35,298 nt of DNA from a virus (Duplodnaviria; Heunggongvirae; Uroviricota; Caudoviricetes), in IMG/VR virus record IMGVR_UViG_3300037454_000603, positions 143,646-178,943 of that record; one strand, given 5' to 3'. Under the pieces are notes generated by a model that was given only the letters and a program-made list of their open reading frames with translations, was not told the origin of the DNA and did not search any database. Made by a program: the position numbers and the translations under genes. Of this stretch, positions 1 to 34,632 are shown piece after piece. How positions within the stretch are numbered: position 1 is the first letter of the stretch; every line of letters starts with the position of its first letter.

Positions 1-3000
1 TTTGTTCTTCATCAAGAGTTCCTTGTTCTTTTCCTAATCTAATCTATTCTTCTATTTTTTTACTGTTATTTGTCGAAGCATTATACCATTCTTTTGCCGC
101 TTCAACATTAAAAATAGTAGTACCATTCTCAGTTGTATTCATGAATGCTTCGGCAGAAGCCCCAGTATCTTCTAAAGCTTGCTATACCTATTTAAGTTCT
201 TTTCCTTCTAGTGCAATAGATTTTCTTCCTTCTTCAAAATACTATGTTAATTCAGTACCTTTTTTAGCAAATTTATTATATTTCTCTATTGCCTTATCTA
301 CTATTGCAGACGTATCAATAGATGTTACATCTCTATTTAAGAATGGTTCTGAAAGTACCTTAAAGATTTCTTGTATCTAAGCATCACTAAAATTAAATCT
401 ACCTAAAGCACCTTTGAGAATTGTAAAGAAGTCATCTTCATCAAAGATGGTCATATTAGACCAATCAACAGAATTAATTGCTGTACTTATAGCCTATGGA
501 TCAAAACCTTCTTCTAATAAAGTTACCATAGATTTTGCTAGGGCGGCGCGAGAGTCTTCATCTTTTGTACTATCAGTAATAGCATCAGTTAAAGCATTCG
601 TCATTCCTGCGCCGACTTTACTATAAGCTTTGTAGAAACGTGAATAAGAGAAATCCGCAGATTCCACAAGATCAGCTGTTTCTTTCGCAGCATCAACAAT
701 GCTTTCTTTAGTCTTATCAACTTTTTCAGACAAAAGCTGTCTTATTCCGCTGCCTTCACCATCTGGAATTAGTTTACTTATAGCTTCAGAATATTTTTTC
801 TAAACTTCTTCAAAAGGAAGATTATTAATATCCTCTGCAAAATCTGAAAGTACTTCTAACTATTCTTCATTTAATGTTTTAAAACGGTCAAGGTCTTCTT
901 TACTAATACTAAAAGTTGATAGATAATCTTTAATACCTTTTTCAATAACTTCTCCATTGGTGCCAGCGCCAGAATCTATTGCTTGACTAATAAAATCTTC
1001 AAATTTATCGTTTGATAGCTAATTATTTAAAAAGTCTTTATATTGAGCTAAATTAGCTTCATCCCAACCTTGAGCATTTAAATCAGCAATTATCCCTTCA
1101 ATTATACTCTGACGAAGAGCGGGTATATTAGCTAATAACTCAGACCTTTTGGCTTCGGCTTCACGATTCAATTCTTCAATTTCCGCCGCTGAATTATCAA
1201 GATTTTCTCTAAATTTCTTAGCGAATTCTTGCCATACTTTGTCATTAGCGTCGAAAGAATCTAGAATTTCATCTACTTTAGAATTTAAGGTTAGAGAAGA
1301 TACATTCTTCGCACCAGTGGTTTCTTTTAAAGTATCTACAACAAGCTATTGCCATACACTAGCATCTTTAGAGGTATCATTCCATACTCTCTTAATCCAG
1401 TTTTTAGGGTCACCTATACCACGACCATTAAAATCACTTTGAGATAAAATATCATCTAAATTCTATTTTATAGTTTCAATCTAAGGTATTCCATTAGCAG
1501 TAAAAGCTAATCTATTGTAATTCCAAGTCTTGCTAGAAGCTTTTTCAGCGATTCTTTTTCTTCCTTCAGCCATTGCCTAAGACTATTCGAGTTCAATATA
1601 CTATTGAACGAGTCCCAAAGCTTCTGCTGTAGCTTCAGCCTATTTCTAAAGTGATTTAGCATTCTACTCTGCTTTCTAATACTTACTAATTAATTCATCA
1701 TAATTTTTACTTGTATCAATAATAGCATTAGCCTAGTCATCATAACCAATGACAAGTTCTGGAATTAATTCTGCTAAAGACTATGTAGCTTCAACTAGCT
1801 ATGTTGTTTCTTCTTCATCCAATAAACTCTTATCAGATAATTCCTTATAAGTCTCTGATGCTTCTTTAATACTATCCCATTGCTCTTTTATGTCATTATA
1901 TTTTGAATTTTCAATATCTAACTTTTTATTATACTCTTCCTAAACTTTTTCTAAATTTTCTAACTCTTTTTTGTGTCTATAAACTTCATCATTAGCAAGT
2001 CTTTCTTCTTCTTTAGCCTTCTCAATATGTTTAGCCAGCTTCTCTGCAGCAAAAGCCGCCGCAGCGATACCTGCAGAAACTATACCTAAAGTATAATTTC
2101 CTGTCGATAAGCCGTTAAGAAAACCAGAAGCAGCACTTACCGCCGAAGTAATTCCAGTTGTTTTAGCTATTTCGCTTGCACTAAAACTTCCAGTTAAGGC
2201 CATTGAGAGAGCAGTTGTTGTGGCTTGTCCAAGGGCAGTTGCAAAAGATTGAGTCCATTTTGTTCGTAGTAAAGATCTTTGCTTATTATATTCTCTGGTT
2301 TGATCTCGTACAGCCTCTGCAGTTTTTAATTCAGTCTACAATCCTTCATGTCTTTGATTGTTTATTGCAACAATGGTAGTTCTTTCAACGCCTCTCTTTT
2401 GGCTAATCTATTCTTGAATATTTAATCTTTGCTAATCATTCTCTTTAAGCTGTTCATTTAATGCTGCAATCTAAGCTTCATCAGAAGTTTCTTTCTGCAT
2501 TTCTTGTTCTATCTACTAAATAATATTTTTTCTTTCTTCGTAAAGAGTATTTAATTGCGCTGCATAATTTCTTAATTCATCTGAAGAATATTGTCCAACT
2601 TGTAATGACGGAGCATTTGAATTTGTATTCTGAGCTCCTCTCAGTCTAGCTTCCTAGTCCCACTTTTCTTGGCGAAGCTGCTTAACATTTTTCCAGCTTG
2701 AAGCATCAATGTTAGCTTGTAAATCAACAGTATATTTCTATTTATTAATAGCCTTTGCGATAGCACTTCTTATTTTATTACCGCCATCAGAAATGCTTGA
2801 AAGCAAGCCAGTTAATAAAGTCTTTCCAATAGTAACAGCCCACGCAGCGATAATACCAAAGTCTTTAATATCCATACTCTTCATTCTTTGAAGAGCGCTG
2901 TCAATCATATCTAAGAAGTAATTATACGTTTCTTTATTCATTAAAGAAACTCTAAGTTCTTCCCAAGAGTTCTTTATTTTATTTACCTTGTATTCAATTG

Positions 3001-5206
3001 TATCTGCATATTTTGCGAATTGCTCATTAGCTCGTCCTGTTGAGTCAGTGGCTACTTCAATAAGTTCCATTGTTCTCTTATGGTTTTCCATAAGTGCAAT
3101 AAATCTTGATTGCTGACGAGAACCTGCGGCAATAGTAGCAATATAACGCTGAGCATTACGAGAAAGAGAGTCCCATTTAGCTCCTAATTCAAGTAATACA
3201 TCATCCATGTCTCTAAACTGTCCATTAGCATCCTTAATACTAATACCAACAGATTTTAAAGCTTTGTCAACTTTGTTATAATCTAAATCTTCAAATTCAC
3301 TCTCTGAAGAGTCAACGTTTTCTTTTAATTCACTAAATCTAGCCAAAACTGCCTTCATAGCAGTACCTAAGTTCTTAGGTGCTTCCTGAGTAGCTTCAAC
3401 CATTGTAGCAAGCATAGCAGTGGTTGTTTCAAAAGCCATACCAGAAGAATTCGCAATCGCAGCAGTCGCACTCATCGCGTCAGATAAGCCTTGTACGTCT
3501 ACCGCAGCATTAGCAGCTACTTCTGCATAAACATCAGTTACATGAGAGCCTTGGTCCATTTCCATATGGAATGCACGAAGAGCGGCGGTCATTTGCGATG
3601 TTGCATCTTTGAAATCTAATCCTGCCAAAGTTGCCAGTTTCATGGTGTCCTCTGTTAATTTGAGGGCTTCAGCAGTATCAAGACCTTGCTGGTAGTACAG
3701 TCCACTGGCTTGGATTACACTTTCAGTAGATTGTCCAAGCTTATTGGCCATTTCAGCATACTAACTATACTGGCTCCACATATCTGAAACAGAATAATTA
3801 GTAACCATTGCAATTTCAGCAAAAGCTTTATCCAGTTTAGAAACATCATTAAATGTTTTAGTTACTATACTACGAATTTGTCTCCAAGCATTAGTTATTG
3901 ATAATAAATATTTTACATGATATTTGATTCTTTCAAATTCATTATCATAACTACGCTGTGCCGCGGCTGCTCTATTAATTTCTTCCGCATTTTTAGATTG
4001 TTCTTCTCTAGACTTAGCGGTTGCATTGGTTAAAGAATTAGTGCTAGAAGCTAGCTAATTAACTGTATTATTTAGTTCTCCTTCCGCCTAGCTTGCAGAG
4101 CTGGCTGCTCTAGCTAAATCATATTGAACATTTGCAGCATCTCTTATGCCACCAGCATATTCTTGCCCCTAAAGAAATTCTGTTGTATTCTTCTAAGCAT
4201 TAAAAGCTACATTATAAGCATTCTTGGCACCTTTTGCTCCATTAAGAGCTGTATCAGCAGACCTAACGCTTTTTTCTGCACTAGCAATTTCAGCCTTTAA
4301 AGCTTCCATCTTTTGGGTCGCATTATTAAAAACACTATTAATAATCTCTTCAATATTTGTGGCCGCTGTTTTAGAATATTTGCTTTCTTCTAAATATTTA
4401 TTAAAGTCTTTTATTGCTGAACTAGCATTCTTTGCACTGCCAACTATTTGTATAAATTTTTCGTTTATAATATTAAAGTCAGCATCACTAGCAAAAGAGC
4501 CGCCTTTTCCACTGGGTTTCGGTTTTCTAAAAGACATTCGGTCTAAGCCAAATTCAGATAAAGAGGTGTTTTTTCTTCCATAGTTAGTACTTTCTGCTAA
4601 CTATTTCTAATTTTTTAAATTCTAAAGTTTGTCTTTAGCTTGATTTAAATCTTGCTAAGCTAAATCCATTCTCTTCTTTGCTTCATCAGTCTATTTCTAA
4701 AGTTCTTGAGTAATTTTTTGCTCATATTCTAATCTTTTTGCTTCATCGCCTTCTCCAATGGCAGCAATAAGATTAGTTTTATATCCTTTGCCTGTTGAAG
4801 CTACCTAAGCTTTAACTAACGTTTTAGTAGTTTCAATTGTTGATTTTAATTGTCCTTCTAAACGAGCTACTTCTTTTTTTGCTTCTCTAATATTATCAGC
4901 TAATCCTGTTAATTTAATTGAAGAAAATTTTGAACTTAACTAGTCGGCTGTCTTCAATAAAGTATCAATATTTTTATTGTATTGAGAGACTTCTTTTTCA
5001 TTTGTTAAGCCTCTATCTTTCATTTTTTGAATTTCAGACTAAAGCTCTTTAATTCTTGCAATTGACTTTTCAATATTAATTATATCGGCTCTATCAGCTT
5101 TTCCTTCAATAGTAGAATATAATTTATTTAAATTACTAATTATTTCAGAAAAATCTGCTGAGCCTGTTATTTTGATAGCAGATGAAAAATTTTCTTTTCT
5201 TGCCAA
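1..5206 (-). CDS. Tail tape measure protein (runs off the left edge, >1700 aa; TAG=Gln)
   Basis: TTG start at 5206 after GAGGTG RBS. Track fragments 4193-4537, 2738-3751, 1940-2203 and 494-733 are all in this frame and end at TAG. The 2738-3751 part has the TP901-type TMP signature (LYYQQG...GTAMKAVLARF...AGSRQQSRFIALM); the rest is Ala/Lys/Glu-rich helical sequence with hydrophobic segments. Confidence 0.92.
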
Positions 5207-5219
5207 GTTTTCTCACCTC

Positions 5220-34473: not shown

Positions 34474-34502
34474 TTGACAAATTGAATTAAATATGTTATA
34501 AT
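34474..34502 (+). promoter_or_regulatory. Consensus sigmaA promoter with no RBS/ORF directly downstream
   Basis: TTGACA-17-(TG-t)TATAAT. Confidence 0.85.
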
Positions 34503-34508
34503 ATAAGA

Positions 34509-34632
34509 GTAGAATAATGATGAACAGTATATGAATATTGTGAACATTTTATTAATAAGTTAAGAATAATTAACTAAAAAGAAAAGAAAACCTTGTGCCG
34601 CGACTCTATCCGCAAGCGGCGCGGCAATTGTT
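34509..34632 (+). ncRNA. Candidate small RNA or long leader
   Basis: Follows the perfect promoter at 34474; no convincing RBS plus ORF; ends in the GC hairpin TGCCGCG...CCGC-aa-GCGG-CGCGGCA. Confidence 0.3.

Follow-up and report, generated by a model that had tools for sequence, protein, structure and literature searches.

A lineage of large phages carries a genome-wide, DNA-level excess of the pentamer GCSGC

Here we describe the accumulation of a short GC-rich word, the pentamer GCSGC (GCCGC or GCGGC), in a 35,298-bp stretch of phage DNA, referred to below as the window, which forms the last part of the 178,943-bp Caudoviricetes record IMGVR_UViG_3300037454_000603 (G000), rated 100% complete by CheckV. 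The window has a GC content of 33.1% and encodes a tape-measure protein of 2,626 amino acids, a portal protein, and paralogous virion proteins. Its long minus-strand open reading frames (ORFs) are open only when TAG is read as a sense codon, the phage being TAG recoded with TAG as glutamine. Between positions 1 and 30259 (minus strand), as throughout the genome, TAG serves as a sense codon in most late and structural genes, with 45 in-frame TAGs in the tape-measure ORF, while the genes at 13623 to 16448 and 19815 to 21621 and the plus-strand early genes at 30660 to 34248 have no in-frame TAG.

An exact search of the window located 62 GCSGC sites, about one per 570 bp. Of these, 35 read GCCGC (positions 96, 1185, 2055, 2058, 3960, 4362, 4499, 5968, 6052, 6823, 7445, 7578, 9613, 9944, 10051, 11509, 12277, 14364, 14370, 15018, 18108, 18195, 18512, 18728, 20283, 20481, 21751, 22180, 22368, 25032, 28967, 29583, 32446, 33009, and 34597) and 27 read GCGGC (positions 543, 3126, 3582, 3963, 6826, 7872, 8630, 10012, 14367, 16702, 16760, 18198, 18798, 20392, 26334, 27296, 27352, 28470, 28658, 29027, 29586, 30384, 30484, 32833, 33629, 34616, and 34621). 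Markov models of orders 0, 1, and 2 predict 8.3, 10.9, and 13.5 sites, respectively, which amounts to a 4.6- to 7.5-fold excess. A sequence-only reading of the window had counted about 60 sites, in good agreement with the exact number, and had given correct coordinates for all sites it listed except one, placed at 32445 instead of 32446; its estimates of a tenfold enrichment and of about 30% GC need to be replaced by the values given here. An order-3 model absorbs the excess, because the 4-mers CCGC, GCCG, GCGG, and CGGC are themselves the most over-represented. When synonymous codons were shuffled such that protein and per-gene codon usage were kept, 16.9 ± 3.2 sites were expected in the coding sequences of the window and 49 were observed, and the 8-bp palindrome GCCGCGGC was found 5 times versus 0.2 expected. 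Placed in frames with TAG as glutamine, 32 of the 62 sites lie in codon phase 0, where they encode Ala-Ala, 15 lie in phase 1 (mostly GGC-GGC), and 6 lie in phase 2, giving 53 sites in genes and 9 outside ORFs on a hand-picked ORF list.

Several sites overlap, and the five GCCGCGGC palindromes listed in the earlier reading are all present. In the tape-measure gene, positions 3960 to 3967 hold one site per orientation and are read as GCC GCG GCA (Ala-Ala-Ala), and further overlapping pairs are located in a 727-amino-acid ORF (6823 to 6830) and a 402-amino-acid ORF (29583 to 29590). In the gene for a 941-amino-acid virion protein, three overlapping sites in phase 1, GCCGCGGCCGC, include the only GCGGCCGC of the genome (14364 to 14374). 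The copy at 18195 to 18202 is embedded in a 12-bp palindrome, GTGCCGCGGCAC, and one copy of the extended motif described below is built around it. Near the contig end, three sites within 29 bp of noncoding DNA (34597 to 34625) form an inverted repeat (GCCGC ... GCGGCGCGGC).

The excess extends over the whole genome, which contains 374 GCSGC sites versus 40, 54, and 82 expected under Markov orders 0 to 2. This corresponds to a density of 2,090 per Mb (about 2.1 per kb), with roughly 16 to 26 sites per full 10-kb bin. Permuting synonymous codons ORF by ORF in the 155 ORFs with 100 or more amino acids, which keeps protein and codon usage, gave an expectation of 84 sites in coding DNA versus 262 observed (3.1-fold; z about 20 to 23), making GCSGC the most deviant of all 5-mers; it is also the top 5-mer under Markov orders 1 and 2. 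Under the same shuffle, GCCGCGGC was found 22 times versus 1 expected, and CCGCGG was found 40 times versus 5. The enrichment is 2.5-fold in phase 0 (Ala-Ala), 3.8- to 4.2-fold in phase 1, and 7.5- to 10-fold in phase 2, and phases 1 and 2 alone contribute 114 sites versus 25 expected. Of the 145 Gly-Gly pairs, for instance, 33 are written GGC-GGC and so carry a phase-1 site (about 5.5 expected), and the sites in phase 2 use the rare codons CCG and CGG. All three phases are enriched in both orientations relative to the gene, with a similar excess over the shuffle on the coding (+74) and template (+104) strands, and DNA outside called ORFs contains 64 sites versus 4 to 12 expected. An excess found in all phases, in both orientations, and in non-ORF DNA does not arise from codon usage or from pairs of alanine or glycine residues. 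The GCSGC excess is DNA level, not translational, and the genome-wide DNA signal proposed from the window is thereby borne out, having survived the codon-shuffle null that had been put forward against it.

The same data bear on the view that the word is a by-product of coding or of restriction avoidance, in which Ala-Ala or Gly-Gly pairs, a codon-pair preference, or avoidance of GCWGC would push sequences toward GCS-GCN. This view can draw on the 32 of 53 in-gene sites of the window that are phase-0 Ala-Ala, on a GCWGC frequency of 0.58-fold overall under the codon shuffle, and on some Oscillospirales genomes that show the same Ala-Ala shift together with a general GCWGC depletion. However, the excess survives the shuffle, is stronger in phases 1 and 2 (3.8- to 10-fold) than in phase 0 (2.5-fold), and is present outside ORFs. 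Furthermore, GCWGC is low in phase 0 only (0.41- to 0.51-fold) and normal in the other two phases and in non-ORF DNA, and its scarcity is therefore the mirror of the Ala-Ala switch rather than that of an avoided site; avoidance of a TseI-type GCWGC site as the force driving Ala-Ala to GCS-GCN was rejected on these grounds. The shift in the third base of alanine codons is also specific to a following GC and not to any following G, as 66% of these codons end in C or G before a GCN codon versus 7 to 26% before other G-starting codons, the values for a following GA, GG, or GT being 16 to 26%. In addition, T4 and three Firmicute phages show nothing of this kind. A by-product of coding or avoidance is, in our view, very hard to credit.

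Other simple causes were also rejected. General clustering of G and C does not account for the word, as the strongly enriched all-G/C 4- and 5-mers (2.5- to 3.3-fold) carry CCGC, GCCG, or CGCC cores; among the other all-G/C 4- and 5-mers, a few are mildly up (1.5- to 1.9-fold) and several are flat or depleted. Hairpins or terminators were dismissed, since site pairs 11 to 40 bp apart number 23 versus 22 expected once overlapping pairs (d = 3) are set aside. Nor do the sites form a regular lattice: their spacing is near Poisson or slightly even, with a variance-to-mean ratio in 10-kb bins of 0.44 for all sites and 0.41 for clusters (0.34 to 1.16 across bin sizes), while other 5-mers of similar count have ratios of about 1.4 to 1.5. 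Along four genomes, no strand polarity was seen, and both orientations occur in every 15-kb bin.

The accumulation of GCSGC runs against the treatment of other short words in the genome. In the coding sequences of G000, GATC occurs 83 times versus 295 expected (0.28-fold), CCGG 7 times versus 65 (0.11-fold), and TCCGG/CCGGA 0 times versus 46 to 47, and GGCC (0.62-fold), CATG (0.79-fold), and GGATG/CATCC (0.6-fold) are lowered as well. Phages usually shed restriction-type sites, as the sequence-only reading had pointed out, and the loss of GATC, CCGG, and GGCC indicates that classical restriction avoidance operates in G000, with GCSGC going in the opposite direction. As judged from the sequence, this avoidance profile would imply hosts with several restriction systems.

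The word is shared by relatives of the phage. A portal query retrieved 80 loci from IMG/VR, and loci with 60 to 78% portal identity are referred to here as the close clade. Three genomes were used for detailed comparison: G002 from clade A, which has direct terminal repeats; G003 from clade C; and G001 from the sister clade far4 (IMG/VR). More distant named kin are phAss-1, Enterococcus phage EF1, and the Bacillus phages FADO and Tsamsa. In the close clade, GCSGC is 3.4- to 12-fold over an order-1 model and is the top 5-mer in 8 of 8 close subclades. Codon-shuffle observed-to-expected (O/E) ratios range from 2 to 6 in 23 loci, with standard, TAG-recoded, and apparently TGA-recoded loci alike. 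G002 has 370 sites (4.05-fold) and G003 has 299 (3.07-fold). In G001, the top word is instead the asymmetric CCGCA/TGCGG (442 sites; 3.8-fold; z of 34), whose absolute excess differs little between the strands. Each of these three genomes has its own word in excess in all phases and in non-ORF DNA, and the density of the enriched word across whole genomes is 1.9 to 2.5 per kb. Among relatives, the enrichment is independent of the GATC, CCGG, and GGCC avoidance profile, and these different profiles suggest that relatives sharing the word face different host restriction repertoires. In G000, where GGCC is avoided, the overlapping form is GCCGCGGC (32 copies versus 1 of GCGGCCGC), and in G002, where GGCC is tolerated, it is GCGGCCGC (26 copies); G002 also avoids GCGC, CTAG, and GATC almost fully. 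Other distant clades favor CCCGC/GCGGG or CCGCC. A search of the literature returned no report of a GCSGC-type excess in phages.

While the density of the word is maintained, the positions of the sites are not. This emerged from a comparison of orthologues of G000, G002, and G003 (about 50% amino acid identity), limited to positions at which the word could be encoded in both members of a pair. Each genome has a site at 61 to 68% of the orthologous Ala-Ala positions, and the probability of a site in one genome is 0.67 given a site in the other and 0.71 given none; site occupancy is thus independent between genomes once phase is controlled, and positional conservation across clades was discarded as a feature of the system. 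In sets of relatives with 93 to 99% identity, 19 substitutions fell inside the word versus 32 expected from matched bases and codon positions, and 7 gains were seen versus 4.6 expected. The numbers are small, but they fit weak maintenance.

Turnover of this kind would also fit a mutational drive. In the methylation-linked ratchet that Elhai proposed for the highly iterated palindromes (HIPs) of cyanobacteria, a GCSGC methyltransferase, here of the host or an undetected one of the phage, together with methyl-directed or very-short-patch-type repair, would turn near-misses into sites, with no usefulness needed. In Cyanothece PCC 7822, GCsGC stands out from all other 5-mers, is linked to GCsGC methyltransferases, and accumulates alongside them at a similar density of 1,000 to 2,000 per Mb (Elhai 2015, PMC4390886), and GCSGC and GCNGC are real methyltransferase specificities, as the earlier reading had stated. 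Nevertheless, the complete record of G000 contains no C5 (PF00145), N4/N6 (PF01555), or D12 (PF02086) methyltransferase and no Vsr, and TGT/DpdA-type and ThyA-type base-modification enzymes were not detected in it either. A C5 methyltransferase was found in only one of the four strongly enriched genomes, at G002:C1:117323-118249 (E value of 1.5e-46); G000, G001, and G003, as well as FADO and phAss-1, are without one. The near-misses that such a ratchet should consume are not depleted: the C-to-T products GTSGC and GCSGT have O/E ratios of 0.93 to 1.32, and one-off neighbors in general have ratios of 0.93 to 1.8, except for the middle-base variant GCWGC and words containing CCGG. A signature of very-short-patch repair was accordingly rejected. 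The asymmetric CCGCA of the sister clade, the sharing of the word by relatives with very different GATC, CCGG, GGCC, and GCGC avoidance, and the lack of an all-phase excess in sampled Clostridia DNA also speak against this mechanism. The suggestion of a phage-made methylation mark is therefore not sustained, and we judge the ratchet to be improbable.

The all-phase and noncoding excess belongs to the phage lineage. Unrelated phages have no excess, with O/E ratios of 0.81 for T4, 0.68 and 1.03 for the Bacillus subtilis phages SPbeta and phiNIT1, and 0.59 for the Enterococcus faecalis phage phiEF24C, while the portal relatives on those hosts have a weak one (1.9 for FADO, with 1.8 for CCGCA; 1.7 for EF1; and 1.6 for phAss-1). 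The median O/E ratio over 51 Clostridia loci, among them loci of Lachnospiraceae and Oscillospiraceae (about 0.95 Mb in all), is 1.12 and the maximum is 1.96. Two low-GC metagenome-assembled genomes (MAGs) of Oscillospirales, G004 and G005, prefer GCS-GCN for Ala-Ala (2.2- and 1.4-fold overall in the two MAGs), with the effect restricted to phase 0 in G005 and lying mainly in phase 0 in G004, which has an additional weak excess of GCGGC in phase 1 (1.59-fold; z of 5.5). Neither MAG has an excess in non-ORF DNA, GCCGCGGC is no commoner in them than its reversed control, and both have lowered GCWGC, most clearly G004. A trait of the host at large was therefore rejected, as it is seen neither in unrelated phages of the same hosts nor in the 51 Clostridia loci and is mainly an Ala-Ala effect in the two MAGs. 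In G004, a member of the Acutalibacteraceae, GCWGC is 0.49-fold under the codon shuffle (171 copies versus 258 to 438 under Markov models), its depletion is strongest in phase 0 (0.33- to 0.61-fold) and weaker or absent elsewhere, and Ala-Ala is shifted correspondingly to GCS-GCN (68% versus 19%); this pattern looks like ordinary GCWGC restriction avoidance.

The hosts of G000 are probably Clostridia, which have also been proposed as hosts for the phAss-1 group (PMC10607447). The nearest named bacterial relatives of the endolysin come from Roseburia and Lachnospiraceae, at about 39% identity. A GyrA query of genome contigs gave no match, all GyrA homologues being on phage-sized contigs, and a DNA search with 20 kb against 301 genomes of one family returned short matches at chance level only. 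A 78-nucleotide segment of the window (26786 to 26863) is 78% identical (E value of 5e-10) to a contig from a genome of the family of G004 and is possibly a shared mobile element.

These host comparisons also concern the suggestion that the word is a Chi-like element. In such a scheme, the phage would gather the Chi site of its host in both orientations as a shield against AddAB or RecBCD, protecting linear, possibly permuted DNA. Firmicute Chi sites are short with a GCGG core, such as AGCGG in B. subtilis (PMC3321194); the two orientations of the phage word are enriched to much the same degree, which is what permuted DNA would require, and the word differs among clades (GCGGC, TGCGG, and GCGGG), as Chi differs among hosts. 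In contrast to this expectation, FADO (NC_073050) avoids the B. subtilis Chi AGCGG/CCGCT (6 copies versus 44 expected under the codon shuffle) and mildly enriches TGCGG, so that gathering of host Chi was rejected for this phage and B. subtilis; GCWGC (0 versus 36) and GGCC (1 versus 58) are scarce in FADO as well. Unrelated phages of B. subtilis and E. faecalis are not enriched, strand polarity is lacking, and genomes of the candidate host class have no GCSGC excess outside Ala-Ala codons, whereas over-representation and skew would be expected there of a genuine Chi. The idea of a classical Chi-like element has accordingly lost its footing, and we regard a Chi-based shield as quite improbable.

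In G000, the word also forms the core of a longer element. The 15-bp motif TGY-GCCGC-S-NN-ACCA occurs in 48 copies, accounting for 48 of the 374 sites, mostly in spacers of the early region and often as inverted pairs 10 to 40 bp apart. Six copies lie in the window, among them GGTGCCGCGAGACCA (32443 to 32457, plus strand) and TGTGCCGCGAGACCA (33006 to 33020, plus strand) in early-region spacers, TGTGCCGCCACACCA (28964 to 28978, plus strand) outside called ORFs, and TGCGCCGCCAGACCA (28463 to 28477, minus strand). The motif is often preceded by TTAAC- or TTTAC-like bases and then followed by ACTATTTCA. It is nearly absent from G002, G003, G001, and FADO, and no trace of the ACCA arm is seen at the 155 sites that lie in genes for 250 or more amino acids. 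A connection of the bare 5-mer with the motif was rejected for these two reasons, which also indicate a separate regulatory element embedding the word and not the source of the clade-wide excess. The motif is probably an operator or a promoter-spacer element and, given its 48 copies around a GCCGC core, GCCGC is probably contacted by one or more DNA-binding proteins of the phage or the host.

In light of this, the bare word could be a self-mark or a loading site for a phage-encoded reader, such as a nuclease or helicase that spares marked DNA, a DNA-binding regulator, or the phage gyrase. The trait is lineage specific and host independent, the 48-copy motif has the word as its core, often in inverted pairs, and the lineage has GyrA/GyrB, a PIN-PhoH protein, RecJ, a UvrD-like helicase, and large proteins without a family. 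However, the relatives that keep the 5-mer excess nearly lack the motif, the long-gene sites are bare, and no candidate reader emerged beyond a 12-bit, sub-threshold match in G000 to the NgoFVII-type family of GCSGC-binding proteins (RE_NgoFVII), which had no match in G001 to G003. In this form, a self-mark or loading site seems unlikely to us.

Elsewhere in the genome, G000 encodes NrdD, GyrB and GyrA, a PIN-PhoH protein, DnaB, a DnaG-type primase, RecJ, and DnaE (the alpha subunit of polymerase III), together with an ATP-dependent ligase, an AAA_24 ATPase, a UvrD-like helicase, and several large proteins without a family match. The primase (353 amino acids; genome positions 116682 to 117743) matches the DNA primase family phrog_47 (4.8e-38) and adjoins DnaB; a DnaG_N domain was not found in G000. 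Homologues of the primase are present in all relatives searched, as are those of GyrA, except that none was found in EF1. The genome also has a heavy load of homing elements, with an RNA-ligase gene split by an HNH-domain intein and a TAG-rich LAGLIDADG-domain ORF at genome positions 66441 to 68102 and 90750 to 92342.

Taken together, the word is lineage bound, switched between clades, free of orientation, present about once per kb per strand, and turning over, and a DNA-transaction protein encoded by the lineage therefore fits best. We put at about even the chance that GCSGC is a maintained recognition word with a CCGC core for such a protein. Of the suggestions made from the window, a protein-binding or recognition site is the one that remains the best reading. 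The protein that reads it would need a site about every 0.5 kb in either orientation, and the density would be upheld by weak selection per site (odds ratio of about 11 at Ala-Ala) or by a sequence-specific drive. The leading candidate reader would be the phage replisome, with its DnaG-type primase, DnaB, and DnaE; other candidates would be a regulator of the phage that binds DNA and a nuclease or motor by which phage DNA is marked as self. A GC-rich start site is expected about once per 8 to 9 kb per strand in DNA of 32% GC, whereas GCSGC recurs on each strand at intervals of about 1 kb, on the scale of Okazaki fragments. From this arithmetic and the presence of the gene, reading of the word by the phage primase is conceivable but rather doubtful. 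More broadly, we would tentatively entertain the CCGC-core word as a lineage address read by a phage-encoded machine, either as a priming or loading site for primase and helicase or as a mark by which a nuclease or motor tells phage DNA from AT-rich host DNA.

Several points weigh against a lineage-encoded reader. The primase idea draws on the density of the word and the presence of the gene, and DnaG-type primases read trinucleotides, not 5-mers. Much of the noncoding excess in G000 stems from the extended motif, which embeds GCCGC, and to that extent is not independent evidence for the bare 5-mer. The phase-0 Ala-Ala signal is partly seen in some Oscillospirales genomes, and in view of the shift in these MAGs, part of the phage Ala-Ala signal could echo a codon-pair habit of the host. 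For the close clade, the reader or a methyltransferase could also be encoded by the host. The deficit of substitutions within sites is modest and comes from small numbers, and either selection or a sequence-specific mutational drive would fit these data.

Phages are expected to shed short GC-rich words of restriction type, and this clade does lose GATC, CCGG, and GGCC, yet it has accumulated GCSGC, against the codon usage of its genes, until the density reached about 2 per kb. A DNA signal that is inherited with the lineage, kept in density, and switched between clades implies that a sequence-specific process, so far undescribed, operates in the large Firmicute phages of gut and rumen. New here are the asymmetric word of the sister clade, the controls with phages of the same hosts and with DNA of the host class, the turnover of sites, and the separation of the 5-mer from the 15-bp motif. 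If the reader is indeed phage encoded, the word would be the first analogue of Chi or of uptake sequences to belong to phages themselves, and its switch between clades would track a changed specificity of the reader. Identification of the reader could explain how these phages prime, organize, or recognize their own DNA and could help with the puzzle that iterated palindromes such as HIP1 have posed for 30 years, and the word itself could serve as a simple signature of the phage group in metagenomes.

The uptake sequences of naturally competent bacteria, DUS (DNA uptake sequence) in Neisseria and USS (uptake signal sequence) in Pasteurellaceae, occur at about 1 copy per kb in both orientations and all frames, form inverted pairs in spacers, and keep their density while positions turn over. 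GCSGC resembles them in its density of 2.1 per kb, its lack of polarity, and the independence of its occupancy between genomes. Unlike GCSGC, they span 9 to 12 bases, belong to chromosomes, and are recognized by the competence machinery, and no uptake step is known for phage. With Chi sites (GCTGGTGG for RecBCD; AGCGG for AddAB), GCSGC shares the character of a short, GC-rich word over-represented across genes, with a GCGG core and variation between lineages; in contrast to Chi, it has no orientation bias and tracks the phage lineage rather than the host, and FADO avoids the Chi of its host. Phage primase sites, such as the GTC-based pentamers of T7 and the GTT/GCT sites of T4, are likewise short, repeatedly needed on the template, and specific to primase lineages, and G000 has a DnaG-type primase of its own to which the word may be linked; we know of no documented genome-wide enrichment of primase sites.

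The closest precedent is provided by the cyanobacterial HIPs, that is, HIP1 (GCGATCGC) and above all the GCsGC of Cyanothece PCC 7822, which is the same word, 100% GC. Like HIPs, the phage word is dense, its roughly 2,000 copies per Mb matching or slightly exceeding the HIP range, occurs in coding and noncoding DNA in any frame, and often forms overlapping 8-bp palindromes (GCCGCGGC here and GCGGCCGC in clade A). The differences are that it occurs in a phage with probable Clostridia hosts and not in a cyanobacterial chromosome, that every HIP genome has a cognate methyltransferase while none was found in G000, that the sister clade uses the asymmetric CCGCA, and that the depletion of near-misses predicted by the ratchet model is not seen. 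As neither a co-occurring methyltransferase in G000 nor the ratchet signature was found, we describe the word as resembling a HIP and do not class it as one. Finally, the sites of enzymes specific for GCSGC, GCNGC, or GCCGC (TauI, NgoFVII, Fnu4HI/Cac824I, the BisI family, and CglI/NgoAVII) are identical in sequence to the phage word. Phages normally lose such sites, whereas here the word has been gained in a phage in which no such enzyme or methyltransferase was detected; the existence of these enzymes nevertheless means that proteins reading GCSGC exist.

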